A stretch of DNA of 63,549 nt from Eubacteriales bacterium (GTDB lineage Bacteria; Bacillota; Clostridia; Oscillospirales; CAG-272), in assembly GCA_045638385.1 (NCBI GenBank), contig JAZUBI010000128.1:1-63549 (forward strand), written 5' to 3'. Of this stretch, positions 225-56,167 are shown piece after piece. The number at the start of each line of letters is the position of its first letter. The stretch's first letter is position 1. The notes under the pieces were generated by a model. That model made no database searches, had not been told where the DNA came from, and saw nothing but the letters and a program-made list of their open reading frames with translations. Both the position numbers and the translations under genes were made by a program.

Positions 225-3200
225 ATGGCAAAGAGAACAGACTTGAAGAAGATTTTGATCATCGGCTCGGGACCTATAGTAATAGGTCAGGCCGCAGAGT
301 TTGACTATGCGGGAACGCAGGCGTGTCTCGCGCTTAAGGAGGAGGGCTACGAGGTAGTGCTTGTAAACTCAAATCCTGCGACGATAATGACCGACACCGC
401 GATAGCGGACAAGGTATACATGGAGCCCTTGACGCTTGAATATATTGCAAAAATATTGAGATACGAGCGCCCCGATGCGATCCTTCCCGGAATCGGCGGT
501 CAGACGGGACTCAATCTCGCTATGCAGCTTGAGAAGAAGGGAATCTTGAAGGAGTGCCGCGTTGAGCTTCTCGGAACAAGCTCCGAGAGCATTGAGAGAG
601 CGGAGGACAGAGAGCTCTTCAAGGAGCTTTGCCAGTCGATAGGCGAGCCCACCATACCCTCTGAGATCACCTACTCTATTGAGGAGGCAAAGGAAGCGGC
701 AGAGAGAATCGGATACCCCGTTGTTCTCCGTCCCGCATTCACGCTCGGCGGAACGGGCGGCGGCTTTGCTAACAACGAAGCTGAGCTTTACGAGATCGGT
801 CTTAACGCGTTCAAGCTCTCTCCCGTACATCAGGTTCTTATCGAGAAGAGCGTAAAGGGATATAAGGAAATAGAGTTCGAGGTTATGCGTGACTCCAACG
901 ACCACGCAATCACCATCTGCGGAATGGAGAACATCGACCCTGTTGGAGTTCACACAGGTGACTCTCTCGTTGTCGCTCCTATTATGACTCTTTCCGATGC
1001 GGATATGAAGATGCTCAACGATTCCGCAATAAAGATCATCAAGGAGCTCAAGATCGAGGGTGGATGTAACGTACAGTTTGCGCTTGATCCCCATTCAAGT
1101 CAGTACTACCTTATAGAGGTCAACCCCCGTGTTTCGCGCTCGTCTGCGCTTGCATCTAAGGCATCGGGCTACCCGATCGCTCGCGTGACCGCAAAGATCG
1201 CTGTCGGAATGGCTCTTGAGGACATCAAGATCGCAAACACAAACGCGGCGTTCGAGCCTCAGCTTGACTACGTTATAGCAAAGCTCCCCCGCTTCCCGTT
1301 TGATAAATTCACCACCGCATCCAACCAGCTCGGAACGCAGATGAAGGCTACCGGTGAGGTAATGGGAATAGGATCAAACCTTGAGGAGTGCCTGCTTAAG
1401 GGCATCCGCTCGCTTGAGGTAGGTGTAAACCACATCTATCACCACAAGTTTGACAATATGAGCGACAACGATCTCCGTGCATACATCTCCGAGTTCCGCG
1501 ATGACAACATCTTCGCAATAGCAGAGCTTATCTATCGAGGAGCAACCGTTGAGGAGATCCACGATATAACAAAGATCACCTCCTTCTTCCTTCAGGCGAT
1601 AAAGAACATCGTTGATATGGAGGAGACATTGAAGGCTCACGTATTCGACATTGAAATACTCACCGCGGCAAAGAAGATGGGCTTTTCGGACAGATACGTT
1701 GCAAGAATGTGGAAGTGCTCCGAGCTTGAGGTCTTCAAGTTCCGCAAGGAAAATAAGCTCTTCCCCGTATTCAAGATGGTAGACACCTGCCACACCGGCG
1801 CTTATATTCCGTATTTCTATTCTTCCTACACAGGAGAGAACGCATCTGTTCTCACCGATAAGAAGAAGATCGTTGTTCTCGGCGCAGGTCCTATCCGTAT
1901 AGGTCAGGGCGTTGAGTTCGACTACTCCACCGTACACGCGGTAAGCACTATAAAGAATTCGGGCTACGAGGCTATTATCATCAACAATAACCCCGAGACC
2001 GTATCAACCGATTACACCACGGCGGACAAGCTCTATTTCGAGCCTCTGACTCCCGAGGACGTAATGAATATAATCGAATTTGAAAAGCCCGAGGGCGTTG
2101 TTGCGTCTCTCGGCGGACAGACCGCTATAAACCTCGCTCAGCCTCTCCACGATCTCGGAGTGAAGATAATCGGTACGGATTGCGCCGCTATCGACAGAGC
2201 AGAGAACAGAGATGCGTTCGAGAAGCTCTTAAAGGAGCTTGGAATTCCTCAGCCCGAGGGACGCGCCGTAACCAAGATAGAGGATGGCGTTGCCGCTGCG
2301 GCTAAGGTCGGTTATCCCGTGCTCGTTCGTCCCTCCTTCGTGCTTGGAGGACGCGCTATGCAGATAGTTGCGAACGAGGAGCAGCTCCGCCACTACCTTA
2401 AGACCGCCGTTGAGATCGATGAGGACAAGCCTGTTCTTGTTGACAAGTACATCAGCGGTAAGGAGGTCGAGGTCGATGCGATCTGCGACGGACACGACGT
2501 ATTCGTTCCCGGTATCATGGAGCTTGTTGAGAGAACCGGTATTCACTCGGGTGACTCGATAAGCGTATACCCCACCTTCTCTATCTCTGATAAGGTAAAG
2601 GGAATCATTCTTCAGTACGCAAAGAAGCTCGGACTCGGCATTGGCATCGTAGGTCTTTACAACATACAGTTCATCGTTGACAAGAACGACGAGGTGTTTA
2701 TCATCGAGGTAAACCCGCGCTCGTCAAGAACCGTACCCTTCCTCTCGAAGTCTACGGGATACAGCCTTGCGGACATCGCAACCGAGTGCATACTCGGTAA
2801 GTCCTTAAAGGAGCAGGGAATCTTCACGCTTTATCCCGAGGAGAAGAAGCGCTGGTACGTTAAGGTGCCGGTATTCTCCTTCAACAAGCTCCGCGGACTT
2901 GACGCATACCTCTCTCCCGAGATGAAGTCAACGGGTGAGGCGATAGGCTATGACGACAAGTATTACAGAGCACTCTACAAGGCGCTTCAGGCATCCGGCA
3001 TGCACCTTCAGAATTACGGAACCGTGCTTGCAACCATCGCCGATTGCGATAAGGAGGAGGCACTGCCTCTCATCCGCCGCTTCTACAACCTCGGATTTAA
3101 CATCGAGGCTACTCTCGGAACGGCAACCTTCTTAAAGGAGAACGGAATCAGAACACACGTGCTCGGCAAGATCAGCGAGGGCTCTGACGAGATCGCGGAG

Positions 3201-3398
3201 TCGATCAGACAGGGACACATCGCGTACGTTATCAACACCAGCGATCCCTCCTCTTCGGGAGTTACCCGCGACGGCTTTGAGATCAGAAAGTACGCAACCG
3301 AGAACAACGTGACTATGTTCACCTCTCTTGATACAGTAAGAGTTCTTCTTGACGTTCTTGAGGAGACAACGCTTACTATTTCGACTATTGACGCGTAA
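225..3398 (+). CDS. carB: Carbamoyl-phosphate synthase large subunit
   Basis: 1057 aa from ATG 225 (GGAG about 8 nt upstream; the track ORF starts at an upstream in-frame codon, 198). Duplicated ATP-grasp halves and a C-terminal MGS-like domain, with full-length resemblance to CarB. Confidence 0.95.
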
Positions 3399-3410
3399 TA
3401 GGTTCCGATT

Positions 3411-3683
3411 TTCAAATTTTGATTTGTCGGGGAGTTACAGATGACCAATGCAAGGCTTCCCCCTGGGGGGAAGCTCCCGCGCAGCGGGTGATGAGGGGTT
3501 ATTGCATAAGGGTTTCACCCCTCATCCGTCGGCTACGCCGCCACCTGTCTCGCTGCGGCTCGGGCACATCGCGGCTCTGACAACACACTGTGTTGTCATT
3601 CACTACCGCGATGCCGCTTCGCTACCCCCAGGGGGAAGGCTTGCGTTTGTCCTCTGCAACCCACCGATAAATCAAAATTTGAA
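3411..3683. repeat. 273-bp MITE-like palindromic element
   Basis: Terminal inverted repeats ttcaaattttgatttgtcgg (3411-3430) and ccgataaatcaaaatttgaa (3664-3683). Inner inverted repeat gcaaggcttccccctgggggg (3451-3471) / cccccagggggaaggcttgc (3625-3644), plus further internal hairpins. The 82-aa track ORF inside it is not credible. Confidence 0.65.
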
Positions 3684-3685
3684 GC

Positions 3686-4696
3686 TCATCCGTTAAAGAT
3701 AACTTTTCTTTTTTCAAAATCGAAGCAAAGAACTCTCTTTTCTCTCAGATAGTGATCCGAGTTATCTCCAACTCTTACAAGCTTTAAGAGCTTGAGATTA
3801 GGATCTATACTCACAATATTAAAGCAGTCCTGCGTCTTGGTTCCATCGATCCTCTTTCCGTCGCTCCATCCGTTCCATGTAGTAGCACAAGGAACTATCG
3901 AATTTAAAATTCCCTTCTCTGTAATTCCAAATCCGTCATGATGATCGTGTCCCGCAAGGTGACATATATGCACTCCGCCCGCGTTTACAAAATTCACAAT
4001 ATCATCCTCAAACTCATAGTGCCTGGGCTTGCCGGAAAGTGAAAAATAGTCGTTTATGGTCTGGAACGTCACGCCAAACGACTCTGTTATGTGATCTGTT
4101 TTTTCGTGCATTGCAGTAATTACATACAAGCCCTTCTCGCGCGCGTCATTGAGAAGAACGACAAATTGCCTTCTCTGCTCGTCTATGTCATAATATGGGT
4201 CGAGCACGATCATTCTTATATTTGACTCGGGAAAATCCTTGTAATAGCTCATCGAATATTCGAGATCAAAGAAATTAACGTCCCAATCCTCGATATGATT
4301 AAAAAGAAGCTCATATGGCTTTTGCTTGCCGGTTATGCTCAAAACATGCTCGCTGTCATACGAAAAGGTGTCGTGATTTCCAACGCAGTTATATACGATC
4401 CTCTCTCGATCGATACCCTCCCCGTAAAGGTCGCAATATCTCTCCTGCGAGCCCTCGCAGTAATCTCCCGTGTGGAGCGCAAATGATATGTAATCCTTGT
4501 AATAATTCATGTATTCCATAACTCTGTTCCAGCAATCAAGACGCATGTGTACGTCCGAAAAATGAAGGAACTGAAGCACGGAAAACTTGTCATCAAACTT
4601 CTGATTAAAAAATGATGTTCTCGTGGCTGATGCTTGAATTACAAAGGACTCAACGTCACGGTTGAGCTCAATTATGCTTTTATTTTCTCCGTTCAT
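3686..4696 (-). CDS. Calcineurin-like metallophosphoesterase
   Basis: Ordered motifs HFSDVH (DxH), TGDY (GD), VGNHD (GNHD) and LAGHDHH (GHxH). Confidence 0.8.
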   Translation of the reverse strand: MNGENKSIIELNRDVESFVIQASATRTSFFNQKFDDKFSVLQFLHFSDVHMRLDCWNRVMEYMNYYKDYISFALHTGDYCEGSQERYCDLYGEGIDRERIVYNCVGNHDTFSYDSEHVLSITGKQKPYELLFNHIEDWDVNFFDLEYSMSYYKDFPESNIRMIVLDPYYDIDEQRRQFVVLLNDAREKGLYVITAMHEKTDHITESFGVTFQTINDYFSLSGKPRHYEFEDDIVNFVNAGGVHICHLAGHDHHDGFGITEKGILNSIVPCATTWNGWSDGKRIDGTKTQDCFNIVSIDPNLKLLKLVRVGDNSDHYLREKRVLCFDFEKRKVIFNG

Positions 4697-4782
4697 TTAC
4701 AACACTCCCAAAGGATTGATCTATAGTTGAATTATAACATATAAAAAAAGCCTTGTCAACCGATATTCGACCTTTTCCCCCC

Positions 4783-4811
4783 TTGACAAACAGTTAAAAA
4801 TAATGTATAAT
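4783..4811 (+). promoter_or_regulatory. Sigma-A-type promoter upstream of smpB
   Basis: TTGACA (4783-4788), 17-nt spacer, TATAAT (4806-4811). Confidence 0.6.
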
Positions 4812-4861
4812 GTCTCATGCACCAAAGGCGCAAGTATTTTTTTTGAAGGGAGGCGCTATTC

Positions 4862-5329
4862 GTGGCAGGAAAGACAGGCGGCATAAAAATAGCCGCACAG
4901 AACAAAAAGGCTTATCACGACTATTTCGTAGAAGAAAAATATGAAGCGGGCATCGAGCTTTTCGGTACCGAGGTCAAAAGCATCCGCGCGGGAAGCGTCA
5001 ATCTCAAGGATAGCTACTGCGACGTAAAGGACGGCGAGCTTTTCGTGATCGGAATGCACATAAGTCCATACGAGCACGGAAACATTTATAACCGCGATCC
5101 GCTCAGAAAGCGCAGATTACTCATGCACAAGCGCGAGATAATGAAGCTTCACGGCCTGGTCGCGCAAAAAGGAATGTCGCTTGTTCCCCTTTCGCTCTAT
5201 TTTTCGGGCTCAAGGGTCAAGGTCGAGATCGGTCTGTGTAAGGGTAAGAAGCTCTATGATAAGCGCGACGCGATCGCAAAGCACGACGCCGACCGAGAGA
5301 TCGAAAGAAAGATGAAGGACAAGCTCTGA
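4862..5329 (+). CDS. smpB: SsrA-binding protein
   Basis: 155 aa with GTG start and GGGAGG RBS. N-terminus [21 protein letters not shown] is typical of SmpB, and the gene lies directly upstream of the tmRNA gene. Confidence 0.95.
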
Positions 5330-5411
5330 ATTTCTCAAACTCATCTCATATAACCGTTAAAATTGCTTTTTGCAATATTTAATACTGTGCAGAAATTTTG
5401 TTTTAGGATAT

Positions 5412-5700
5412 GCCGCGCTCGAGGAGCAACGCAGTGTTCGGACAAAATCGAAGTCCAATCTTGGCAATGAATTTTGTTTGAAGACAAGGCGCACCGCAGA
5501 GGGCAAGGCGAAGGCGTAGTTACCTACGTCGAGCCGCGCTCGAGGAGCAACGCAGTATTCGGATAAAGTCGAAGTCCAATCTTGGCAATGAATTTTGTTT
5601 GAAGACAAGGCGCACCGCAGAGGGCAAGGCGAAGGCGTAGTTACCTACGTCGAGCCGCGCTCGAGGAGAAACGCAGTATTCGGACAAAATTCGAAGCCAC
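5412..5700. repeat. 121-bp tandem repeat, about 2.4 copies, abutting the 5' end of ssrA
   Basis: Units start at 5412, 5533 and 5654 (gccgcgctcgaggag...) and are near-identical. The third unit is truncated where the tmRNA begins. It generates the overlapping 83-aa and 60-aa track ORFs. Confidence 0.85.
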
Positions 5701-5701
5701 A

Positions 5702-6097
5702 TGGGTCTGTAAAGGTTTCGACGGGGATTTTGAGGTATGATAAGCGGGTAGAGCCGAGTAATCTCTAAAACTGCTCAAACTTTAAAAAATAAACGACAAC
5801 AATACTGTTGCTATGGCTGCCTAATCGTCGCTCCGTAAGGAGCTGACGAAGGCAGTGCTGTGACCTGCGGGTCACCCGTTCCTCTCGGAAGGACCACGAG
5901 CCGAGACTGAGCGTCATCTGAGTGGTGCACGTGCATCGGCGGTTTACCGTTGAACCGATCACGCATAAAACGGTTGCTCTCACACCGAGCCTGAGTACCG
6001 GCGCGGCGGGGGAAAAGCTCCAATAGATACTCTGCACCCGGAGAAAGTTGTATCAAGAGGTTTTCGGACAGGGGTTCGACTCCCCTCAGATCCACCA
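5702..6097 (+). ncRNA. ssrA: tmRNA (transfer-messenger RNA)
   Basis: 5' GGGTCTG pairs with 3' CAGATCC, including a G3:U70 wobble, followed by ACCA. GGTTTCGACGGGG lies at the 5' side and a T-arm GGGGTTCGACTCCCC at the 3' side. The internal tag frame ends ...NDNNTVAMAA-TAA (5792-5824). Confidence 0.9.
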
Positions 6098-6132
6098 TTC
6101 ATTAACACGTCCAGTGTTAATTTACAAGAATA

Positions 6133-6176
6133 CCCCGACAAAGCAAGCTTTACTTGCCTTGTCGGGGCTTTCTTTG
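6133..6176 (+). terminator. Hairpin + T-tract downstream of ssrA
   Basis: ccccgacaa...ttgtcgggg stem followed by ctttctttg. Confidence 0.6.
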
Positions 6177-6301
6177 TCTTAGGTAGGCGAGCCTAGTCAT
6201 CATAAACTCATACCCTTTTCGATAAGGTTGGAGTCGTCTGTCCAGCCATCATTTTTGAAATTTTTAACAATATAGAATCCAAGTGTCCAATTAAACGATT
6301 A

Positions 6302-6850
6302 TCATGTCTTTTTACATTTCATTTCATGATCGCTTACAGGCTGGATATTTCCAATAACAATTTGATTTTCCGATCCAGGCGTTAGGTCAAACACTCCATC
6401 ATAGTAATATTTTTTTCCAAAAATATCGTGACAGTTGATACGACATGTTTTCAATGTTTCACCATTAACAATATAAAAAATCAAATAAAAATGAGTATCC
6501 TTATCGATCGTTGAACAATTTTCTGGTATGTATGTCTTAGTTTCAGTTGTTATATTGTCAATAAATAAAATACCATTATCAGTATTCTTAAAGCATCCAA
6601 ACACTGTTTTTTTGCTTGTCTCACCTTCACTTCTGCACAAGAGTTTAGGAACACCTTCTACATCACGCAACACGTGTGCCACACTATTAACCAATATGGG
6701 TTTCGCCTTGTCAATTCTCTCAACATTACGCTCTTTTCGATCATGTGCTAATGTAAGATAAACACCAAGCAAAGCCAATAAACCACCAATAAACGCCGAC
6801 GATAATGGCATTATAATATCAGTTACCCAATTAATTTCCACTAAATACAC
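6302..6850 (-). CDS. Hypothetical single-pass membrane protein, co-operonic with the KAP NTPase
   Basis: One N-terminal hydrophobic helix (IIMPLSSAFIGGLLALLGVYLTLA) followed by about 140 aa of soluble, Cys-containing sequence. Starts 34 nt after the KAP stop. The exact start is uncertain (GTG 6850, GTG 6841 or ATG 6811). Confidence 0.6.
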   Translation of the reverse strand: MYLVEINWVTDIIMPLSSAFIGGLLALLGVYLTLAHDRKERNVERIDKAKPILVNSVAHVLRDVEGVPKLLCRSEGETSKKTVFGCFKNTDNGILFIDNITTETKTYIPENCSTIDKDTHFYLIFYIVNGETLKTCRINCHDIFGKKYYYDGVFDLTPGSENQIVIGNIQPVSDHEMKCKKT

Positions 6851-6884
6851 CTCACAATATTCGCATTTTACATATTCTATATTA

Positions 6885-8261
6885 CTATTTTATTGCGCGT
6901 AACAAATCCCAAAATCGTTCAGCATAATCTTCTATTTGATCCATTGAATCACTGCAATTTGAATACCCATCAAAATGGGTTTCCGTAATATGCGCATAAC
7001 ATCCAAGTAAAATTCCCCACAGATCACTAGGAATAATATAGTGTCTGTTTCCTTCGCTATAATAGTATTTCCTTCTTGTTTCATTGCTAAAAGGATAGGA
7101 TATTTGATGTGACATCTTGTCATGTACAAATTGCAATCCAGCAGTAGGTGTTTTTCCAAACAATTCAGAAAAGAAAATACCATTCGCTTTATATGGTAAA
7201 TTTGCTTTTGTATGTTTTAAAACAATCAAAAACAACTCCACGCACATATAGGTCTCATCCATTATTTCATCATCCTCGTTGAGGAGATTGTGTAGCAGAT
7301 GACATTTTTCAATGATCGCTATCTTTTCTCGTGCTTCTATTCCAGTAAAAATGTTTTTTTGAAACTCAATAACATCAACCTGGTCATTTTTTTCAAATTG
7401 ATTAAAGTAATAGCCATGTATTTCCTCGAACTGATCATTGTATGTACCCTCGTCAAGTTCTATTTCAAACTTGATAAACTTAGCAAGATATTTTTGGGTA
7501 TCGACTTTATCGCCGAACATTTTTTGAATTGTGCGTTCAAGCTGAGTCTTATCTACAGCAAGTATAACCTGCATGTTTTCAATTTCATTAAAAACATGGT
7601 GTATTCTTTCCAAAACTTTTATTTGGTATTCAGGAATGCACCTATCGAGTTCATCAACAACAAATATTATTGTTCTTTCCGAAGCAATTTCTTTTATCTC
7701 TTTACGAAGTGTTAATAATGCTTGTTTAAAATCCAAGTATTGATCATAACTATGAGCCTCACACACTCTCGCCGTCGCATTATCACACGCCTCTGATATT
7801 CCATCTGTGATTTCTTTCGGGTTCAGACCAATTTTTGATTCTAGCCATTTCGATCCACCTTCATATAGTTTAGATAATACGAATTTTGCGACACTACGTA
7901 TACGCGCGCGTGCTTCTTCAGAAAAAAGATGTTCTTTGCTGTTTATATCATCCAGCATAGATGATACAATGGCTATTAGCGGTTCTTCATAATAATCGTA
8001 TTCCCAACAATTAAAGTGGAACACATAATATTTATCTGCCGCACGTTCCCCATCTTGTTTAAAAAGCAGTCTTTTCTCGAGTTTATCAAGAACATATGAT
8101 TTCCCTATACCCCAAGAACCACTGATAGCAAAGCAAGCGTTTTTATTGCTGCTAGCAATTAATTCTATAACCCTTTGTATGCGCTGAATATTCTTTTGCC
8201 TATTTAAAAAATCTCCGTCAATAGAAGACTCAACTATACTATCAATAAAAACATCAGACAT
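6885..8261 (-). CDS. KAP-family P-loop NTPase
   Basis: Walker A GSWGIGKSY, FNCWEYDYYEEP (the KAP-typical aW.yD motif) and Walker B IIFVVDELDRC. GGAGGAG RBS. No TM insertions seen. Confidence 0.8.
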   Translation of the reverse strand: MSDVFIDSIVESSIDGDFLNRQKNIQRIQRVIELIASSNKNACFAISGSWGIGKSYVLDKLEKRLLFKQDGERAADKYYVFHFNCWEYDYYEEPLIAIVSSMLDDINSKEHLFSEEARARIRSVAKFVLSKLYEGGSKWLESKIGLNPKEITDGISEACDNATARVCEAHSYDQYLDFKQALLTLRKEIKEIASERTIIFVVDELDRCIPEYQIKVLERIHHVFNEIENMQVILAVDKTQLERTIQKMFGDKVDTQKYLAKFIKFEIELDEGTYNDQFEEIHGYYFNQFEKNDQVDVIEFQKNIFTGIEAREKIAIIEKCHLLHNLLNEDDEIMDETYMCVELFLIVLKHTKANLPYKANGIFFSELFGKTPTAGLQFVHDKMSHQISYPFSNETRRKYYYSEGNRHYIIPSDLWGILLGCYAHITETHFDGYSNCSDSMDQIEDYAERFWDLLRAIK

Positions 8262-8360
8262 ATATACTCCTCCATTATACTACTGATACACATATATACA
8301 TACAAAAATTATATCACATAATTCGATAAAACTCAACCCTCAAAGCAACAATAAATTAGA

Positions 8361-8400
8361 AAAGGAAACAAGCGTCCACGCAGGGACGCTTGTTTCCTTT
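8361..8400. other. 17-bp perfect hairpin between the KAP gene and the 87-aa ORF
   Basis: aaaggaaacaagcgtcc (8361-8377) pairs with ggacgcttgtttccttt (8384-8400). Possible bidirectional terminator or insulator. Confidence 0.5.
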
Positions 8401-8545
8401 ATTATATTAAAAAGTCCATATAAGACATAGAAAAAAGCCCGTTTTAGTCCTCTTTTCAACCACTGTTCCCTTTCACGCTCAAAAATACTAACAAATAATT
8501 AATAGTAGCTCAGCGGTACATCATTAATCATTCAAGGAGGCTGAT

Positions 8546-8809
8546 ATGGCAACTAAAAGGCACAAATGTACACTGGCTAACGCTAATTTCCGTAATATTA
8601 ATCTAAAAATTTACGAACAAATAATTATTGACACAATAAACGAAACTGTACCTGGTAAAGACCCCAAGGTCTATGAAAGCTACTTCTCTACCAAAGCCCT
8701 TAATCAAAGCGAGGCGGTAAAGATCGGCAGAGCCTTAGCTAAGATCAGTGAGCTAAGTGCCTTGGGACAGGAGAAGAAGATATTTAGACTTTTTGACGGT
8801 AAGACCTAA
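8546..8809 (+). CDS. Hypothetical 87-aa protein
   Basis: ATG with AAGGAGG RBS. Convergent with the LRR gene, with abutting stop codons. No recognisable motif. Confidence 0.45.
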   Translation: MATKRHKCTLANANFRNINLKIYEQIIIDTINETVPGKDPKVYESYFSTKALNQSEAVKIGRALAKISELSALGQEKKIFRLFDGKT

Positions 8810-10096
8810 TCACCCACGTTCGATAGCAAATTCAACATATTTGTTTTTCAACGCTTCTGCCGCGCTACTTGGATTAGATAATATGTCTTCGGGTATATTT
8901 GAAAACAGCCCACCGCCAACTTTTTTCCAACCACACGGATTGTCAAAGATAATCTTATCTAAACTGTCGCATTTAAAAAATGTTTTTTTGCCCATACGTT
9001 TCAATCGACTAGGTATTTTTATTTCTCTTAGATTTATATTAAGTCCAAACGCAAAATCTCCTATTTCATTGACACTCTGCGGAATGTTAATGCTTACCAA
9101 ATTGGAACAATCGCCGAATGCAGAATTACCAATACTATTTAGATTATTTGGTAGACAAATATAGTCAAGATTAGTGCAGCTGGAAAATGCACCAATGCCT
9201 ATTGTTGTCACACTATTCGGAATGGTAATATTTGTTAGATTGTGACAATTAGAAAACATCCACCCCTCAATATTTGCAATCCCCTTTCCAATAACAACAT
9301 TTTTTAAATTTTTGCATTGGGAAAATACACTTTCATAAATATGAACGGTGCTATCAGGTATACTAATTCTCTCAAGGCTCGTACACCATGCAAACGCCTC
9401 GCGCCCAATGCTAGTAACTCCCTCTGGGATGTTAATGTTTTTGAGACTTGAACAAAAGAAAAATGCGTTATGTCCAATACTTTTAATGCTATTTGGAAGT
9501 GTTATATCTGTTAGTGTAACGCAATTTGAAAATGCCGATGACTCTATACTATTGCCGCTAGTGATATTGATTGTTCTTAAATTCGATTTTGGCAAGGCAA
9601 ATATAATGCAAGAAGGAATATCTGCAATTTCAATTTGGCAACCACTAAAAATCTCAATACCTAAGCTTGGAGAATCATTTCTAATAGTTACTTTTCTAAG
9701 GCTTGTACAATTTTGGAAACAGTACATACCAATTTCAGAAACACTTTTAGGAATATCTATACTGGATATATTAGTACAATCGGCAAAAGACTTATATCCA
9801 ATTGTTGTTATAGATTCCGCAATCACTATATTGGCTAGTTTTTTACTTTTTTCAAATGCTCTATCTCCAATAGCAGTAACTGGTTTTCCATTGTATTCTG
9901 TCGGAATTGTTATAGATGATGCTTCTTTATTTGCTCCTATTCCAACTACTAGATAACTTTTTCCATCTTCACTCAACTTAAAATTCAGTCCTTCATTTTT
10001 TAATGTATCAGAAAAAACAGTTCCAGCGCATTTTTTGCAATATTTCGAATCAGAATCACATTTTGTCAAGCATTTTACACAATATTTTGCATTCAT
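8810..10096 (-). CDS. Zinc-ribbon + BspA-type leucine-rich-repeat protein (no signal peptide)
   Basis: Start moved to ATG 10096 (AAAGGTGA RBS). N-terminal CxxC...CxxC (CVKC...CKKC), then at least 12 repeats of the ..IP.SV..IG..AF..C..L..I.. type. Confidence 0.8.
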   Translation of the reverse strand: MNAKYCVKCLTKCDSDSKYCKKCAGTVFSDTLKNEGLNFKLSEDGKSYLVVGIGANKEASSITIPTEYNGKPVTAIGDRAFEKSKKLANIVIAESITTIGYKSFADCTNISSIDIPKSVSEIGMYCFQNCTSLRKVTIRNDSPSLGIEIFSGCQIEIADIPSCIIFALPKSNLRTINITSGNSIESSAFSNCVTLTDITLPNSIKSIGHNAFFFCSSLKNINIPEGVTSIGREAFAWCTSLERISIPDSTVHIYESVFSQCKNLKNVVIGKGIANIEGWMFSNCHNLTNITIPNSVTTIGIGAFSSCTNLDYICLPNNLNSIGNSAFGDCSNLVSINIPQSVNEIGDFAFGLNINLREIKIPSRLKRMGKKTFFKCDSLDKIIFDNPCGWKKVGGGLFSNIPEDILSNPSSAAEALKNKYVEFAIERG

Positions 10097-10523
10097 TTCA
10101 TTCACCTTTCTCGTTATCATAGCGCCAATTTTCTTTCTGATTTCGATTATATCATATATTAACAGCATTTTCAATATCATTGTATAAAATAGTTACCGCA
10201 ATTTAAAATGTAGTATTTTACCATAAAATTTAATCATTTTCAACATCATTGAATAAATATTAAGCCTCGATGACATGCAAATGACTGCTTTCCCTCTCCT
10301 CCATCCTCTATTATCGCAAAAAACAAGACTTACAAATGCCAGCTCGCGCTCCATTGCACTGTTTATTAGCGAGTCCGTTGCTTTTTCGCGCTGCTTTCCT
10401 TTTTAAACTTCCCTTTCGCCCCCCCGAAAAGCGGTTTATGGTTTTCCTTGCCATCCTCGGTTTCATAGCCGTTCTATCAAGGCTATCCATATACCCTTTT
10501 TCGTGATACCGAGCAATCACGGG

Positions 10524-10535
10524 TCAGATCCACCA
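10524..10535 (+). repeat. 12-nt copy of the tmRNA 3' terminus (TCAGATCCACCA)
   Basis: Identical to 6086-6097 and followed by an A-run, as at 10846-10857. Confidence 0.6.
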
Positions 10536-10546
10536 AAAAAACAACA

Positions 10547-10857
10547 AGAGAGGCATGAGCCTCTCTTGTTGTTTTTTGCGATATATTTGACGGAGCGAAC
10601 CCCCTACCGCCCCTTGGGGCGGTATTAACGTGCGCTAAACGCGCGAATATCCAAAATACGCCTCGGCGCACGTGTTAGGTTCAGACTCCCCGGCAAAAGG
10701 AGAGAGGCATGAGCCTCTCTTGTTGTTTTTTGCGATATATTTGACGGAGCGAACCCCCTACCGCCCCTTGGAGCGGTATTAACGTGCGCTAAACGCGCGA
10801 ATATCCAAAATACGCCTCGGCGCACGTGTTAGGTTCAGACTCCCCTCAGATCCACCA
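10547..10857 (+). repeat. Two tandem 154-bp units, each ending in a tmRNA T-arm-like GGTTCAGACTCCCC
   Basis: Units start at 10547 and 10701. Each has a terminator-like hairpin (agagaggc/gcctctct + T-run) and ends at 10678-10691 or 10832-10845. The duplicated 62-aa and 66-aa track ORFs are repeat artefacts. Confidence 0.85.
10832..10857 (+). repeat. Direct copy of the ssrA 3' end (att-type repeat)
   Basis: GGTTCAGACTCCCCTCAGATCCACCA versus the functional GGTTCGACTCCCCTCAGATCCACCA (6073-6097). The only difference is one inserted A. Confidence 0.85.
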
Positions 10858-10860
10858 AAA

Positions 10861-10900
10861 AATACTGCAGAAAATGATACATTTTCTGCAGTATTTTTTT
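10861..10900. terminator. Bidirectional rho-independent terminator (probably the original ssrA terminator)
   Basis: 16-bp perfect stem (10861-10876 / 10880-10895), 3-nt loop, A-run before and T-run after. Confidence 0.75.
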
Positions 10901-10902
10901 AT

Positions 10903-11082
10903 CCAAGTCGCAGACTTGGTGTATCATCGCCGCACGAAGTGTGGTGGATATCATCAGCCCCTGCGGGGCTGTATCTCATCACGCGCCAGCGTGTATCTTT
11001 CTGCCACTTGATGATATACAAAACTTCGTTTTGATGATATGCAGTTTCTGCGAAATTGATGATATACAACGGCAAGCCGTTG
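10903..11082. repeat. Motif-hairpin array A (3x TATCATC(A), centre, 3x TGATGATA(T), interleaved with 7 small hairpins)
   Basis: Hairpins include ccaagtc-gca-gacttgg, gcccc-tgc-ggggc, cacgc-gcca-gcgtg, caaaac-ttc-gttttg, gcag-ttt-ctgc and caacgg-caag-ccgttg. The array is homologous to the reverse complement of array B. Confidence 0.8.
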
Positions 11083-11182
11083 ATTTTCATGTTGCTGTGT
11101 GCTGTAATACACTTAAAGAGGTGATATTAGTCATTTTGAACGTATTAACCTGCGCAAATTACACAATACAAAACCCACATTC

Positions 11183-40053: not shown

Positions 40054-40055
40054 AT

Positions 40056-40089
40056 GCAAAAAGGGATGCTGTGTGCATCCCTTTTCTGC
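40056..40089 (+). terminator. tRNA-Ser terminator
   Basis: aaagggatgc/gcatcccttt stem followed by tctgc. Confidence 0.65.
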
Positions 40090-40146
40090 GTTGTGGGGGG
40101 AGAGGGTAAGGAGAACTCGATCTCCAAGGCGCAAGGCTTGGAATTA

Positions 40147-40208
40147 GGTTCAGAATCCCTCTCTCTCCGCCAATGCAAAAAGGGATGCTGCAAGCATCCC
40201 TTTTCTGC
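40147..40208 (+). repeat. Duplicate of the tRNA-Ser 3' end plus its terminator
   Basis: GGTTCAGAATCCCTCTCTCTCCGCCA plus a terminator copy. It differs from the gene (40029-40089) by an inserted A in the T-loop and by loop changes in the terminator. Confidence 0.85.
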
Positions 40209-44253: not shown

Positions 44254-44292
44254 AATGAGAGAGGGGTTCGCATCGCGAACCCCTCTCTCATT
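44254..44292 (+). terminator. tRNA-Leu terminator
   Basis: About 17-bp stem aatgagagaggggttcg / cgaacccctctctcatt. Confidence 0.7.
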
Positions 44293-44299
44293 ATGCTCC

Positions 44300-44580
44300 C
44301 GACCCCACCGTCGCTGAACCGCTCGCGCAAAGCGCGATCAATGTGCGCCAAAATCACCCAAAACCTAAACCAACATCGGCGCACATGTTCGGTTCAGAGA
44401 CCGGCGGTCTCCACCTCCCTGAAAACCCCTCAAACCGCTCGCGCAAAGCGCGATCAATGTGCGCCAAAATCGCTCCAAATCCAAAACAAACCTCGGCGCA
44501 CATGTTCGGTTCAGAGACTGGCTTTCCCTCTCCGCTATTTTGCTACCGAACTTCCCGTCGCTGAACCGCTCCCCTAAGCC
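44300..44580 (+). repeat. About 116-bp tandem units (2+ copies), each ending in a tRNA-Leu T-arm-like GGTTCAGAGAC(C/T)GG
   Basis: Units start at 44317 and 44433 (aaccgctcgcgcaaagcgcgatcaatgtgcgcc...). T-arm-like ends lie at 44391-44404 and 44508-44521. Confidence 0.8.
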
Positions 44581-51978: not shown

Positions 51979-52209
51979 TAGGTTTTTGAAAAATAATTAT
52001 TTTTTTATTCCTTGAACGATTGAACCCTCAAACGTACAAAATCCGCCGCTTCTGTCTTTATAGGGCAGAGGATGGCGGATTTATCGTTTATAAAAGAAAA
52101 AACACCCTCAAAACCGCCGAAATGAGCGGTTTAAGGGCGAAAATGAGGCATTTTCCGTATATAAAGCAAAATCCCATAGCCGAAATTGTATCGACTATGG
52201 AATCTTTTT

Positions 52210-52263
52210 TGTGTAAGGGCTATAAAAAAGATATTTTTGCCGTTTTGCTTACGGGATTTGAAC
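52210..52263 (-). repeat. Repeat R, copy 1
   Basis: tgtgtaagggctataaaaaagatatttttgccgttttgcttacgggatttgaac. The reverse complement begins GTTCAAATCCC, the tRNA-fMet T-loop core. Confidence 0.85.
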
Positions 52264-52276
52264 TCTCGAACTCAAT

Positions 52277-52438
52277 CACGGCAAAGCCGTGTATATCATC
52301 AATGCGCAGCATTGTATATCACCAAAACGAAGTTTTGCATATCATCAAGCCGCAGAAATACACGCTAATGCGTGATGATATACACCTTCGGTGATGATAT
52401 GCGCCTAACAGCGATGATATACCAAGCCTGCGGCTTGG
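52277..52438. repeat. Motif-hairpin array B (diverged reverse-complement copy of array A)
   Basis: 3x TATCATCA-type and 3x ATGATATA-type motifs interleaved with hairpins cacggc-aaa-gccgtg, atgc-gca-gcat, aaaac-gaa-gtttt, cacgc-taat-gcgtg, cacc-ttc-ggtg and ccaagcc-tgc-ggcttgg. Confidence 0.8.
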
Positions 52439-52483
52439 ATAAACAAAAAGAGAACTTTTGGTAGACAAAAGTTCTCTTTTTGT

Positions 52484-52538
52484 TGTGTAAGGGCTATAAA
52501 AAAGATATTTTTGCCGTTTTGCTTACGGGATTTGAACC
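52484..52538 (-). repeat. Repeat R, copy 2
   Basis: Same 55-bp sequence as R1. Ends 6 nt from the stop of ORF 52545-52943 and is followed on the minus strand by the hairpin at 52446-52481. Confidence 0.85.
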
Positions 52539-52544
52539 TAACGG

Positions 52545-52943
52545 TTAAATCTCTTTAAAGCGTGCTTCTGACATAACGTTTATGTAATTTTCATCATATT
52601 GATGTATTGAGTGAAACACTCCTTCATCAAGACCCGTGATACAGTTCGGCTTGCCTTTTACGACAAAAATTCTTATGCAATCCTTTGCCGGAGAAAGGCT
52701 AATAAGCGGTTCGGAGATTCCATATATTCTACCTACAATACGAGGTAAAACGGGAAACTGCTCCCACTCTATTGTATTGTTTTTGCAATGAATAATGGAA
52801 TATTTATTAGCGCGTTTCCTTGTAAAATAGATCTCGTAGTTTTTATCTTCCAGTGCGAACTTTACAAGTCCGATTTTATCCATAAACCAATCGCTTTTAG
52901 ATTGATCTTTAAATTTCTCATAAGAAGTATAGATTTTACCCAT
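52545..52943 (-). CDS. Hypothetical 132-aa protein
   Basis: Start moved to ATG 52943 (AAGGAG RBS). 8-nt overlap with the upstream four-helix-bundle gene. No recognisable motif. Confidence 0.55.
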   Translation of the reverse strand: MGKIYTSYEKFKDQSKSDWFMDKIGLVKFALEDKNYEIYFTRKRANKYSIIHCKNNTIEWEQFPVLPRIVGRIYGISEPLISLSPAKDCIRIFVVKGKPNCITGLDEGVFHSIHQYDENYINVMSEARFKEI

Positions 52944-53121
52944 TGTTTTTCTCCTTTGCGGTCTTGCAAGATGCAATTAGCATAACACGAATAGAAGCGC
53001 ATTTATCTGACAGAATTTTATATTGCTGACTTTCAATGTAATTTGTTCTGTGTAAAAGCTCAAGCCAATAGCCTGTCTCGCTTGATTCTTTGAGTGCTAT
53101 TTCAAGCTTGGATTCTGCCAT
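52936..53121 (-). CDS. Short four-helix-bundle protein (23S rRNA-IVS / Avd family, C-terminal-half length)
   Basis: 61 aa. SSETGYWLELL...YI...QY..L...C..I..ML matches the C-terminal helices of the PF05635-type family. It has its own promoter and RBS. Confidence 0.5.
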   Translation of the reverse strand: MAESKLEIALKESSETGYWLELLHRTNYIESQQYKILSDKCASIRVMLIASCKTAKEKNNG

Positions 53122-53144: not shown

Positions 53145-53173
53145 ATTATAGCATAAATTTGGGAATTTGTAAA
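53145..53173 (-). promoter_or_regulatory. Promoter of the four-helix-bundle/132-aa module
   Basis: On the minus strand TTTACA (53168-53173), 17 nt, TATAAT (53145-53150). The -35 lies 2 nt from the edge of array C. Confidence 0.6.
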
Positions 53174-53175
53174 GA

Positions 53176-53349
53176 GTGATGTTTGCCCTTATGGGCAAGT
53201 GATGTTGTGCTATCGCACAGTGATGTATTGATGTCTGCGACTCAAAGTGATGTTATGTGTTCCTTCCTCACGCGCCGCAGCGCACATCACAAGGCAAAGC
53301 CGTCATCACGCACGAAGTGCGCATCACGTTCCGCTTGCGGAACACATCG
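53176..53349. repeat. Motif-hairpin array C (4x GTGATGT, centre, 4x (A)CATCAC, interleaved with small hairpins)
   Basis: GTGATGT at 53176, 53199, 53220 and 53247. ACATCAC-type motifs at 53284, 53303, 53321 and a degenerate one at 53344. Hairpins include ttgccc/gggcaa, tgtgc/gcaca, gcgc/gcgc, gcac/gtgc and gttccg/cggaac. Confidence 0.8.
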
Positions 53350-53391
53350 TTCCAAAAACGAAAAAGCAGTCCATAGGACTGCTTTCGTTTT

Positions 53392-53446
53392 TGTGTAAGG
53401 GCTATAAAAAAGATATTTTTGTCGTTTTGCTTACGGGATTTGAACC
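53392..53446 (-). repeat. Repeat R, copy 3
   Basis: Same 55-bp sequence (one G/C difference). Ends 12 nt from the RloB-like stop and is followed on the minus strand by the hairpin at 53358-53392. Confidence 0.85.
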
Positions 53447-53458
53447 TAGCGAATACCA

Positions 53459-54145
53459 TTAAATATATTTGCTTTTAATATCATCAGGGAGATATTTCGC
53501 AAGTTCTTGAACCAACAAATGAACCTTGGTGGCAGGAACAGATTGAGTATCGGTTTTCCCTCTGAAAGCATCTAACTGCCTTTGCGCATACACAATTGCT
53601 TTCTTTGGGTCTCCTTTTTCTGTCATAATTCCAAACAATTCTTCATTGTTTTTTTCGTATCTAGTCCAGCCCAGTTCTTTGAATTTTCTATGTAAGAATT
53701 TTCTATAGTCTTTCCTGTCATTGTCTGATGTATAATTTGCAAAATTTAAGATAAACCAATATTCAATACACTGATTAGACCATGCACAATGATACGTAAC
53801 TTTATTCTGTTGTCCATTTAATATTTCTGCTCTTTGTGATACAGCATTAAAGTCTTGTGTTGGAAAACTATCTTTATCATATACACACCAAATTTGCGCA
53901 CCATTTATATTGTTTTGTTTCACATACTCTTCTGCATAATAAATGACACGTAATGTTTCAGCTCCAACACCTTCAATGTGTATATGAACAAGATTTTTGT
54001 ATATGGGATTGTTTTTTATGGCTTTTTCAAATCCTTTAAAATACAGTGGTTCTGTTTGCTCTCCTTCACAAAACACATATATTCTTTCTAACGGATTTAA
54101 ATGGTCAATTTCTCTTTTCTTTTTTCGATTTTTCGCACTTGCCAT
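53459..54145 (-). CDS. RloB-family protein (AbiLii-like)
   Basis: The N-terminal RIYVFCEGEQTEPLYFKGF matches the RloB signature (..CEGe.TE..YF). The start overlaps the ATPase stop (TAATG). Confidence 0.75.
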   Translation of the reverse strand: MASAKNRKKKREIDHLNPLERIYVFCEGEQTEPLYFKGFEKAIKNNPIYKNLVHIHIEGVGAETLRVIYYAEEYVKQNNINGAQIWCVYDKDSFPTQDFNAVSQRAEILNGQQNKVTYHCAWSNQCIEYWFILNFANYTSDNDRKDYRKFLHRKFKELGWTRYEKNNEELFGIMTEKGDPKKAIVYAQRQLDAFRGKTDTQSVPATKVHLLVQELAKYLPDDIKSKYI

Positions 54146-55362
54146 TAATACTCACCCCAATCTATAAATCTTCTTAAATAGGGGTCTGCACCGTATCTTC
54201 CTTCTAAATAACGTTTATCGTACTTAGCATCCTTTCTTTCTGCTTTTCCATCATCATTCTTGAATTCCACAAGCGAATACAGTTTAGCTGCTTTGTTTTC
54301 CCCTTTAGCTATAAACCATATTTCATCTCTTCTGAATACATCGTTATTCATGGTTGAAAGATCATGTGATGTGAATATTAACTGTGCACCTTTTTGATTA
54401 GATTCTTTGTTGCTGAACAGTTCAATAATATACTTTAACAAAATGGGGTGAATTTTTGCATCTAATTCGTCAATAACCAATGTTCCTCCAGAAAGCAAAG
54501 TACTAGCAATGCGAGGTAATATTCCAAAAATCTTTATTGTTCCATTAGACTCCTCGCTAAGCTCTAATTCGTAACTATTCTTATCAATAGTATGCGTGGT
54601 ATAAACTCTAATATTATCCTCTGTTTCTTCCACTCTATAATCGGATATATCGATATCCATTTCCATTAACATCTTGAGAATTAACGATTTTATTTTACTT
54701 GATTCTGTAACTCCTATTCGAGAATCGGTATCAGGATTACCATAGTTAATAAAGTCAATACTATTTTCCAACCAATTAACGATATCTTTCACGGTAGCAT
54801 TTCTTCCATGCGTAATTCCTAAGAAGGAAAGCAAGGGGAGATTATCGGATATGCCACTACAATTGTACCCTTTAAAAGAATTTTTTAACTCAATAATCGA
54901 ACCTTTTCTAGTAAACATGGTTGAGTAGGAGCTGCTTGAAATAGACTTTTTATACAACTCCTCATTAACTATTTTATCTTTTAGAATCGATATAATATAT
55001 TGATATTCACATTTTTCAGTTCTAAAGAATAATTCAAATTCAGTCGGTTGATTTATTGTATCTTTGGAAAATTTAAATGGTTTTATAAGAGCACCGCCAT
55101 TTCGTTTGGCACACTCCGTATTATCACATCCAACCGCGCATATAGGTTTCATTATTTTGCTACAGATGCTATATAGCGCATTTAAAACAGTAGACTTACC
55201 AGACCCATTGGGTCCATAAATTACTCCAAGTGGTAAAAATTTTTCTCCATCTGAATCCACTATCAAACTTTCATTATGTTCTGTTATATTAGTAGCTTGC
55301 ATATCAAAAGTGATTTCTTCTTTTAAACATTGAAAGTTTTTAACTGAGAATTGGCAAAGCAT
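54145..55362 (-). CDS. AAA/ABC-type ATPase (AAA_15/AAA_21, AbiLi/RloA-like)
   Basis: Start moved to ATG 55362 (GGAGG RBS). FSVKNFQCL...YGPNGSGKST Walker A, LVIDELDAKIHP Walker B and a FTSHD motif. Confidence 0.8.
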   Translation of the reverse strand: MLCQFSVKNFQCLKEEITFDMQATNITEHNESLIVDSDGEKFLPLGVIYGPNGSGKSTVLNALYSICSKIMKPICAVGCDNTECAKRNGGALIKPFKFSKDTINQPTEFELFFRTEKCEYQYIISILKDKIVNEELYKKSISSSSYSTMFTRKGSIIELKNSFKGYNCSGISDNLPLLSFLGITHGRNATVKDIVNWLENSIDFINYGNPDTDSRIGVTESSKIKSLILKMLMEMDIDISDYRVEETEDNIRVYTTHTIDKNSYELELSEESNGTIKIFGILPRIASTLLSGGTLVIDELDAKIHPILLKYIIELFSNKESNQKGAQLIFTSHDLSTMNNDVFRRDEIWFIAKGENKAAKLYSLVEFKNDDGKAERKDAKYDKRYLEGRYGADPYLRRFIDWGEY

Positions 55363-55573
55363 TGCAATTACCTCCAATTTAATAATTGTTTTATGTTATT
55401 ATAACTCAAACCTCGGCTAGTTATTCATGTTTGTGAGATTTTTTCTCACTATCATTATACTATACTTCGAGCTGTTTTGCAAGTGTTTTTTGCAAAAAAA
55501 TATTTATTTACAAATAATCATTATCTGTTCTTATATATTTTCATGATATAATTTTCACAAGGAGGATTGTATC

Positions 55574-56127: not shown

Positions 56128-56167
56128 TGGTTGCGGGGAGAGGCAAACAAGTATCCCTCCGGGTTAT
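56128..56167 (-). repeat. Decayed copy of the tRNA-fMet 3' half
   Basis: The minus strand reads ATAACCCGGAGG...CCCCGCAACCA, so the anticodon-stem 3' strand and acceptor end are conserved while the T-arm has diverged. It lies about 220 bp downstream of the real gene. Confidence 0.7.

Follow-up and report, generated by a model that had tools for sequence, protein, structure and literature searches.

Closest described systems

Gut-1 (RF01706) is a structure of three short hairpins split by a repeated linker of about 7 nt that was reported from human-gut sequences and graded as likely RNA (Weinberg et al. 2010, PMC2864571). Known only from gut metagenomes, it has remained in Rfam without an explanation since 2010. 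Proteins of the Pfam family PF05635 are described from other settings. The 23S rRNA intervening sequences of Coxiella and Leptospira, which carry an S23p (PF05635) open reading frame (ORF), are regarded as selfish, and their way of moving is unknown (PMC4990558). Avd, the PF05635 member of diversity-generating retroelements, is an oligomeric, basic four-helix bundle that works with structured nucleic acid (PMC6182149). Here we analyze a stretch of 63,549 nt from an Eubacteriales bacterium (contig JAZUBI010000128.1 of assembly GCA_045638385.1), referred to below as the window, which contains three arrays of short hairpins separated by constant linkers: array A (10901-11085, plus strand), array B (52274-52440, minus strand), and array C (53170-53345, minus strand). 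Gut-1 and arrays of this kind are now tied to PF05635 genes at one address, which reads tRNA or transfer-messenger RNA (tmRNA) terminator, array, promoter, and gene.

A relaxed Rfam scan gave one meaningful resemblance, which was to Gut-1. Two arms of array C (53174-53258, plus strand, 34.9 bits; 53279-53352, minus strand, 23.1 bits) and one arm of array B (52351-52425, plus strand, 26.9 bits) matched the model, array A had no match up to an E value of 10, and the gathering score of 50 bits was not reached. In the Gut-1 seed alignment, a tRNA 3' end (CCA) and a terminator precede three GUGAUAU-hairpin units, which are followed by a centre and three to four hairpin-AUAUCAC units; the first hairpin pairs to the centre as it does in the window arrays. 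Gut origin and the short hairpins split by a linker, which is GUGAAAU or GUGAUAU in Gut-1, are common to both. Array C also has the arm polarity of Gut-1, whereas arrays A and B have the linker TGATGATAT/TATCATC and the reverse order of arms. Since the layout is the same but the scores are below 50 bits, the window arrays are sister variants of Gut-1 and not members by the Rfam criterion. Gut-1 has been modelled as a one-armed small RNA, and no description existed of its linkage to tRNA, its second arm, its loops of the DNA type, or the PF05635 gene beside it. The original prediction for arrays A and B, made from the sequence of the window, was that their pattern does not match CRISPR, REP/BIME, or integron attC sites. 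This holds for these three systems, which are treated next, but the pattern does have a precedent in Gut-1, whose architecture is the same.

Repetitive extragenic palindromic (REP) sequences and the bacterial interspersed mosaic elements (BIMEs) and REP doublets forming hairpins (REPINs) built from them are also extragenic, with hairpin units that have a single-stranded head 5' of the stem. They occur in both orientations and after terminators, and they are read as single-stranded DNA. The arrays differ from them in having the head (G)TATATCATC(A) without GTAG, in their shorter stems of 4 to 8 bp that differ by unit, where REP sequences are imperfect palindromes of about 20 to 40 nt, in the order of three direct and three inverted blocks instead of alternating ones, and in the fixed site behind tRNA or tmRNA genes. 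Integron attC sites were rejected because A and B contain no R''-L''/L'-R' GTTRRRY core sites and no integrase is linked to them. CRISPR arrays, with identical repeats of at least 23 nt and unique non-palindromic spacers, were rejected because the constant part is only 9 to 12 nt, what lies between is palindromic and is conserved from species to species, and the arms are inverted. Like the arrays, the S23p intervening sequences have flanking inverted repeats and are associated with a stable-RNA gene. In contrast to them, the array element lies past tRNA or tmRNA terminators and outside the mature RNA, not in a 23S helix removed by RNase III, and in place of one long stem it has a multi-hairpin array, together with a promoter of its own. 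The arrays also differ from Avd systems, as no reverse transcriptase, template repeat, or variable repeat is found near them. The pneumococcal BOX and the Neisseria Correia elements are similarly small, self-folding, modular, intergenic, and promoter supplying, with a variable number of units (reviewed in PMC3184786), but their sequences are unrelated and they have no known tRNA-terminator specificity, DNA mini-hairpin loops, or linked protein gene. Iteron and operator arrays of plasmid rep and par systems resemble the arrays in their short identical sites, direct and inverted, that lie upstream of or overlap a -35 box. However, their spacers are not conserved palindromes.

Structure of arrays A and B

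Array A, read on the plus strand, opens with ATCC and a first hairpin (hp0). Three units of TATCATC and a hairpin come next, then a centre, three units of GATGATAT and a hairpin, and GATT. The first hairpin (10903-10919) is ccaagtc-gca-gacttgg, and its 5' arm and loop are also complementary, with one mismatch in A, to the centre segment ctgccacttg (11001-11010). The left arm (10920-10993) is an inverted homolog of the right arm. Its linkers are TATCATC (10922-28), TATCATC (10949-55), and TATCTCATC (10972-80), and its hairpins are at 10930-44 (GAA loop), 10956-70, and 10980-93 (GCCA loop). The right arm (11008-11085) has TGATGATAT linkers starting at 11009, 11032, and 11057, hairpins at 11019-33, 11042-58, and 11067-82, and a terminal TTGATT (11080-85) that forms a -35-like hexamer. 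In array B, hp0 is at 52422-38, the left arm at 52351-52421, and the right arm at 52274-52348, and the linkers are three exact TATCATC followed by TGATGATAT, TGGTGATAT, and TGATGATAT.

Array A and the reverse complement of array B align end to end at 70% identity, and their first right hairpins are identical. This agrees with the predicted layout, and the bounds were extended slightly. The hairpin differences given as examples hold as well: the hp0 consensus is ccaagYc-gca-gRcttgg, with a single pair changed from T-A to C-G, and the third left hairpin has the same stem with a changed loop (gcca versus atta). The broader claim, that the hairpins of the two copies are kept by compensatory changes, was borne out in part. 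Other positions do differ and are still fully paired, but several of them are replacements by different hairpin variants and not point covariation between two copies.

A covariance model (R1) was trained on the right arms alone, with the left arms left out. It recovered the untrained left arms on the opposite strand at 49.7 bits (E value, 7.5e-7) and 48.3 bits (E value, 1.3e-6), the latter being the left arm of array A on the minus strand. Single-stranded DNA folding, with z-scores of -6.1 (A) and -7.0 (B), gave local hairpins together with left-right linker pairing. The R1 scan of the window found nothing beyond the A and B half-arrays, so there are exactly four half-arrays of the TATCATC/TGATGATAT linker type. 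Exact TGATGATAT occurs nine times in the window, compared to about 0.5 expected by simple arithmetic, and eight of the nine are within A and B; with at most one mismatch there are 41 matches in the window compared to 20 +/- 4.8 in shuffles. Arrays A and B are therefore real. The spacing of linkers varies from 19 to 27 nt in the arrays, which rules out helical phasing on plain duplex DNA.

Covariation across the array family

Relatives were collected by a pattern scan of species-representative genomes. At least 120 loci, designated by L numbers, were listed with 8-kb flanks, and more exist. Nearly all are from metagenome-assembled genomes of Acutalibacteraceae, Oscillospiraceae, and other Clostridia from the guts of ruminants and other animals. 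In 48 aligned arrays the linkers are invariant and the hairpins are position specific. The local hairpins were paired in 96.8% of cells compared to 83.2% after shuffling, and both sides were changed in 158 cells compared to 53. For the 5' arm of hp0 against the centre, 99.4% of cells were paired compared to 77.6%, with both sides changed in 71 cells compared to 33. None of 500 shuffles was as high in either test. Sliding the 3' partners of the local hairpins by 1 to 3 columns lowered pairing to 20 to 37%, and an alignment-free test of right-arm hairpins gave 91 to 97.5% Watson-Crick pairs compared to 71 to 83% after 3' halves were swapped between arrays.

True covariation is thus shown at the level of the family, and the second comparison supports an alternative, long-range pairing of the hp0 5' arm with the centre. 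The invariant linkers and the covariation indicate that the arrays are under selection for both pairing and linker sequence, as had been predicted. The prediction that A and B are diverged copies of each other was not borne out: they are members of a large family linked to tRNA and tmRNA genes and to PF05635. The identity of A and B (70%) is close to the median between genomes (67%), and each has closer relatives, at 77%, in other species, so they do not represent a recent duplication. Further copies and covariation were both found.

Genomic position and spread of the arrays

The module is about 165 to 240 bp long, and each half-array is a row of 3 to 6 units. A unit is a constant linker of 9 to 12 nt (5'-GTATATCATCA) with a short, perfectly Watson-Crick hairpin, whose loop on the linker-sense strand is C-GNA-G or C-GNNA-G; the two halves are on opposite strands. 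Upstream of the arrays, oriented by hp0, an A-run, a stem, and a T-run form a bidirectional terminator. Directly before this terminator, 32 of the 64 scorable arrays have a complete tRNA or tmRNA gene (14 kinds) with its CCA end, and in most of the remainder the terminator follows a displaced tRNA or tmRNA 3' fragment (CCA) or a short module ending in ACA. On the other side, the arrays abut the -35 box of a downstream sigma-70-type promoter, and the last linker often supplies this box. The arrangement TTGATT-N17-TATAAT, in which the terminal TTGAT plus T is the -35 hexamer, was found in about 20 of 66 arrays. The gap in which the array lies, between a terminator and a promoter, is not expected to be transcribed in the sense direction.

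One promoter with its ribosome-binding site (RBS), TTGATT..cgcttttatgcTATAATacacccaaggcggtg, occurs eight times in the loci (L007, L032, L074, L078, L081, L088, L092, and L110). All eight copies are fused to an array, and each precedes a different ORF. The array plus promoter behaves like a portable expression platform. Different species share arrays of 91 to 98% identity that have sharp ends and lie between different flanks (pairs L022/L044, L051/L058b, L115/L117, and L007/L074). In L051/L058b and L115/L117, identity starts at the boundary of the T-run with ATCC and stops after TTGAT, before the final T of the hexamer. In L022/L044, it extends over the terminator as well and, on the other side, over some 85 nt of promoter and leader sequence, stopping before ORFs that are unrelated. 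From array to array, terminator variants, types of hp0, and promoters appear in shuffled combinations. On these sequence comparisons, the array is apparently a discrete module. The window has three arrays within 63 kb, and several 8-kb loci have two; where arrays follow one another, they point the same way, 0.8 to 1.6 kb apart, and enclose a single gene. The genes downstream of the arrays are diverse accessory genes. In major gut Clostridia, the arrays recur as a landmark of the variable regions that lie behind tRNA genes and collect defence and accessory genes.

Several other candidates were rejected. A blastn search of array A against plasmid and phage collections gave no match, and among 110 viral-contig pattern matches there was one true array, next to a tRNA where the contig ends. 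The idea of an invertible segment with the hp0/centre repeat as its boundaries was rejected, as no array was seen in the inverted configuration. Frpo-like single-stranded promoters, Fur or DnaA boxes, Tn7-like ends, and K-turns (C/D box) were considered and did not fit on inspection.

Linkage to PF05635 genes

The arrays are coupled to PF05635 genes with matching linker types. Among the 881 ORFs of the 120 loci, 11 are PF05635-like; in 9 or 10 cases the ORF is the first gene to follow an array, and 7 of the ORFs start 47 to 64 nt past the last linker. In look-ups that began from the protein, seven of seven showed a stable-RNA gene or terminator followed by an array, a promoter, and the PF05635 gene. 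Proteins of subfamily 1 follow arrays with TATCATC/GATGATAT linkers; these are P0133 (tRNA-Lys upstream), P0237 in L249 (tmRNA), P0222 (tRNA-Val), and P0125 (tRNA-Gln). In subfamily 2, which includes the homologs of the window fragment, the linkers are [G/A]TGATG/CATCA[C/T], namely GTGATG/CATCAC for P0003 (tRNA-Glu upstream) and P0011 (terminator only, with no RNA gene upstream) and ATGATG/CATCAT for P0046 (tRNA-Lys). The linker type therefore tracks the subfamily. The two subfamilies are 44% identical, and P0046 and P0003 are 79% identical. PF05635/S23p proteins are abundant, subfamily 1 alone comprising 3746 clusters in the search. The closest solved relative is 2RLD, with five chains in the entry. 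A PF05635 (23S-rRNA-IVS/Avd-like) gene as the usual downstream gene is new here. Array and protein are a directly testable pair of partners that comes in two natural classes of specificity, one with TATCATC and one with [G/A]TGATG linkers, and a separate subfamily of the protein belongs to each.

The three window arrays differ in what is left of this gene. Array C has the same build with GTGATG/CATCAC linkers and an arm polarity that is opposite to that of A and B and is Gut-1-like. It abuts a strong promoter (53145-53173, minus strand) with TTTACA, a 17-nt spacer, and a TG-extended TATAAT (TGnTATAAT), which matches the consensus at 11 of 12 positions. A truncated PF05635 ORF (52936-53121, minus strand; 23S_rRNA_IVP, four-helix bundle; Pfam E value, 1.5e-9) follows 3' of the array. 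The fragment is the C-terminal half, covering profile positions 60 to 105 of 106, and its homologs are 107 aa long; close homologs in L239-L243 are preceded by a C-type array. Array A retains only a remnant of a promoter and RBS (11086-11129, plus strand), with a degenerate -10 box TGTAAT at 11103-08 and AAAGAGGTG at 11115-23. In L249, the terminator and hp0 are the same as those of array A, and the promoter and RBS align with window positions 11086-11129. The similarity runs to the ATG of the L249 PF05635 gene and stops there, indicating that array A lost its PF05635 gene. Array B is solo, without a downstream gene or PF05635 ORF.

DNA or RNA

The stems contain 2524 Watson-Crick, 9 G-T, and 9 A-C pairs; they are thus 99% Watson-Crick, with G-T at about 0.4%. 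In a selected RNA, several percent of G-T pairs would be expected. Where non-Watson-Crick pairs do occur, there is a bias of 12 to 2 towards G-T on the strand reading TATCATC, with GNA in the loops. This bias fits a function of the single strand, at a frequency far below that expected of selected RNAs. Triloops are dominant, and loops closed by C-G have the form GNA or GNNA when read along the 5'-TATCATC-hairpin strand. For hp0 there were 63 C-GN(N)A-G loops and no C-TN(N)C-G loops, for the left arm 83 and 5, and for the right arm 0 and 152, the last corresponding to GN(N)A read from the bottom strand. Loops of this kind are those of GCGNAGC and GCGNNAGC, which are mini-hairpin motifs of DNA (PMC13037366, PMC3201870). 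The tetraloops of the arms that start with G are mostly GTCA, GTTA, and GCCA, with a pyrimidine at position 3, and are not GNRA; GAAA is found mainly in hp0. The adjacent terminators, whose function is at the RNA level, have UUCG or GNRA loops instead.

Because the polarity flips at the centre, any single transcript would carry one half in the right and one in the wrong sense. The halves of C-type and Gut-1-type arrays diverge rather than converge, which suggests that the two halves work independently, one per strand. No conserved promoter reading into the array was found, and conservation ends at GATT, the sequence on its right being variable, which leaves no conserved promoter for the antisense direction. 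Few G-T pairs, DNA-type loops, the polarity flip, and the position between terminator and promoter together favour a DNA-level element over an RNA. The original prediction had left the choice between RNA and single-stranded DNA undecided; intrastrand pairing stands, and of the two options DNA is the better supported.

Proposed function and alternatives

We propose that the array is a non-coding DNA module that folds, presents its linkers to an oligomeric protein, and thereby affects the adjacent promoter. We assign this composite reading a probability of about 0.45. When the strand is exposed or the duplex supercoiled, the hairpins would fold out and line up the constant linkers, which would then form a multivalent site for a sequence-specific oligomeric protein. 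The best candidate for this binder is the product of the adjacent PF05635 gene. By binding at the -35 box or beside it, the protein could control the abutting promoter, and the module would mark a unit that spreads between tRNA/tmRNA flanks and between species. Array A would then be an orphan whose gene was lost, array C would have kept a gene fragment, and array B would be a solo copy.

Several observations weigh against this proposal. Stems of 4 to 8 bp are expected to extrude poorly from a duplex, and exposure of the single strand is transient. The Rfam curators classed Gut-1 as RNA on the basis of covariation, related arrays are present in metatranscriptome contigs, at low depth and with no strand information, and some one-armed arrays (L014, L052, and L083) lie just 5' of the RBS of ordinary genes (an aminoacyl-tRNA-synthetase-like gene in L014), where they may be 5' leaders. 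About 90% of the arrays from the DNA-pattern scan have other genes or none downstream, and any protein partner must therefore act in trans. The match of linker and subfamily could reflect plain co-inheritance of two lineages. PF05635 proteins are not known to be sequence-specific DNA binders, and Avd binds nucleic acids non-specifically. As to spread, the left flank is always the terminator T-run, and the first letter on the right is T, extended to TT in about 75% of arrays; a target-site duplication longer than this T/TT match was not seen. Joined left and right flanks compared with the loci, a small set, gave no spanning match that would represent an empty site, and all-against-all clustering of the 881 flank ORFs with motif scans gave no recurrent transposase or recombinase.

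In a stronger form of the idea, the array is the folded-DNA recognition site of the neighbouring PF05635 oligomer, and array and gene together are self-propagating. They would home to the 3' flanks of stable RNAs, tRNA and tmRNA here and 23S rRNA in the classical intervening sequences, with A and B as non-autonomous copies. We regard this as doubtful. If true, it would give PF05635/S23p a first function outside diversity-generating retroelements, beyond which we know of no role for these proteins, and "Gut-1 RNA" would have to be re-read as a DNA element.

That the arrays are instead a structured non-coding RNA is in our view unlikely. One or both strands would then be transcribed, and the hairpins would expose the UGAUGAUAU or UAUCAUC linkers in single-stranded form for an RNA-binding protein, so that the RNA acts as a sponge or a regulator, or the left and right linkers would pair to give a branched rod. 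The Gut-1-like architecture, with subthreshold matches of 23 to 35 bits, and the published grading of Gut-1 as likely RNA (PMC2864571) speak for such an RNA, as do the strong covariation, the 12-to-2 bias of G-T pairs, the metatranscriptome contigs, and the one-armed arrays in possible leaders. A reading of the array on the reverse strand would also end at the bidirectional terminator. However, the contig evidence is unstranded and of low depth, no sequencing run was found that contains this organism well, the reverse strand has no conserved promoter, and the sense strand lies after a terminator and before a promoter. The scarcity of G-T pairs, the dominance of triloops over GNRA tetraloops, the GNNA loops with a pyrimidine at position 3, and the flip of loop polarity at the centre are likewise difficult to reconcile with RNA. 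[quoted passage not shown] The region past tRNA terminators would be a safe site, and the link to PF05635 and the promoter would be incidental. The arrays do have MITE traits: they are small, non-coding, two-armed, and strongly self-folding with 3 to 6 units per arm, they have terminal inverted repeats (R1; E value, about 1e-6), near-identical copies occur across species in unrelated contexts with sharp ends at ATCC and TTGATT, and three of them lie within 63 kb here, with two in several 8-kb loci. HUH Y1 enzymes read REP sequences and IS200/IS605 ends by a conserved single-stranded head 5' of a hairpin, which is also the arrangement of the array units. But a motif scan of the 120 8-kb flanks found no Y1-like (HUH) ORF such as the RAYT transposases that accompany REP sequences, no transposase or recombinase gene recurs within 8 kb, and neither a consistent target-site duplication nor an empty site was seen among the loci. 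The fixed position and orientation relative to the tRNA terminator, the identity of hairpins at each position conserved across bacterial families, which suggests function, and the seven of seven protein look-ups with matching linkers are also against it.

A role as a recombination site, either as the arm-type array of tyrosine integrases that target the tRNA T-loop or as an attC-like boundary of promoter-bearing cassettes behind tRNA genes, is quite improbable. The window has many duplications of tRNA and tmRNA 3' ends, and array B lies in a 274-bp unit between two 64-nt repeats. In locus L036, a tRNA-Arg gene with a terminator and array is followed by cargo and by a repeat of the tRNA 3' end 19 nt long, behind which a second terminator and array lie, and the consecutive arrays in one orientation with a single gene between them and the diverse accessory genes downstream would also suit cassettes. 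In contrast, no integrase is linked to the arrays, crossovers map to the T-loop and not to the array, and the mini-insertions at the tmRNA, tRNA-Ser, and tRNA-Leu genes share a TTAG/GTTCAGA junction and have no array. In L057, an island of about 4 kb (1590-5730) with a phage-type integrase (PF00589), the single integrase found in the flanks, is inserted in tRNA-Pro and has a repeat, about 50 nt long, of the 3' half of the tRNA. Its arm-type sites are plain TTTCTAACA direct repeats at both ends, and the native terminator and array are displaced. As the island lies between the tRNA and the array, the array is on the chromosomal side and not, as arm-type sites would be, within the integrated element; the same is true of array A, whereas array B and the L036 array are inside repeat-bounded units. 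Ordinary tRNA-targeting integrases act around the arrays without needing them. Finally, a chance resemblance or a recent local duplication with unstructured differences can be virtually discounted. The presence of both arrays in one 63-kb window is all that speaks for it, against an A-B identity no higher than that between genomes, closer relatives in other species, at least 120 loci elsewhere, the covariation, and the covariance-model E values.

The tmRNA locus and array A

The tmRNA gene (5703-6097, plus strand), identified by ARAGORN and Rfam, is preceded immediately at its 5' side by a tandem repeat of 121 nt (5412-5696; 2.3 copies, 95% matches). It is followed by a low-GC inserted island (6098-10837), recognized by direct repeats of the tmRNA 3' end and by Pfam and PADLOC hits. 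The island encodes a KAP-family nucleoside triphosphatase (6885-8261, minus strand; PADLOC PDC-S20), a BspA-type leucine-rich-repeat protein (8810-10180, minus strand), and a 182-aa ORF with no family assigned, and has two 154-nt mini-units at its end. The direct repeats (family D10) are at 6078-6097, 10524-10540, and 10838-10857. The last of these (GACTCCCCTCAGATCCACCA, plus strand), which was also recognized by alignment with L249, is a displaced tmRNA 3'-end copy directly 5' of the array A terminator. That terminator (10857-10899, plus strand; inverted repeat I3) is bidirectional and intrinsic, with an A-run, a 20-nt perfect stem, and a T-run, and its sequence is also found directly 3' of the tmRNA in L249. 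In L013, L060, and L249, the tmRNA gene, terminator, and array are directly adjacent. Judging from the repeats, insertion of the island duplicated the tmRNA 3' end and moved array A 4.7 kb from the tmRNA gene. A database look-up of the protein adjoining array A returned no record, and SmpB matches were only on contigs of about 1 kb.

Gene-less mini-insertions of about 115 to 155 nt occur at 10524-10857, 40054-40175, and 44290-44520. Their hosts are tRNA-Ser, tRNA-Leu, and the tmRNA gene, behind which there are two such units of 154 nt in tandem with 99% identity. Each has a copy of the host tRNA or tmRNA 3' end and a terminator, ends in ...TTAG/GTTCAGA, and contains no array. They look like "attP-only" remnants of one family of T-loop-targeting integrases.

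Surroundings of arrays B and C

Array B is preceded by a bidirectional terminator (52442-52484, minus strand; inverted repeat I3), the hairpin of which is also found 3' of the tRNA-Glu, tRNA-Leu, and tRNA-Tyr genes in L003, L010, and L019. The 64-nt repeats that flank array B belong to family D1, with three copies at 52206-52269 (copy 2 of 3, minus strand), 52480-52543, and 53388-53451 that are 89 to 95% identical. The module has a T-loop-like GGTTCAAATCC in its three copies, given as GTTCAAATCC for the copy at 52206-52269, and ends in ACA just 5' of the terminator, the position held elsewhere by a tRNA 3' end. Homologs of it occur 3' of the arrays in L012, L013, and L084, and it may be a cassette-end marker. 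Directly upstream of the first 64-nt module and array C is an AbiLi/AbiLii-like defence pair (53459-55377, minus strand), consisting of an AAA_21 ATPase (PADLOC AbiLi; E value, 4e-84) and an RloB-like protein (AbiLii; E value, 5e-25).

At 56124-56391 (minus strand), a tRNA-Met gene and terminator are followed by some 250 nt that are rich in hairpins and contain the motifs AGCGAAAA/TTTTCGC, after which there is a 20-nt repeat of the tRNA-Met 3' end (56124-56143). This stretch may be another array type or a mini-insertion.

Variant arrays

Two-armed arrays without hairpins occur right after tRNA terminators in L030 and L082 (tRNA-Tyr), L036 and L028 (second site), and L065 (tRNA-Gly). Examples are four TTCACT, a spacer, and four AGTGAA, or ATTCAT repeats followed by ATGAAT repeats. 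Their position and symmetry are the same as those of the hairpin arrays. The one-armed direct arrays have 3 to 9 GATGATAT-hairpin units and lie away from tRNA genes (L014, 4323-4375; L052, 826-1029; L083, 588-762; and L050, L053, L073, and L107). In L001 and L043, the linker switches within one locus from GATGATAT units to GATTCCATAC units, which suggests that there are further linker families.

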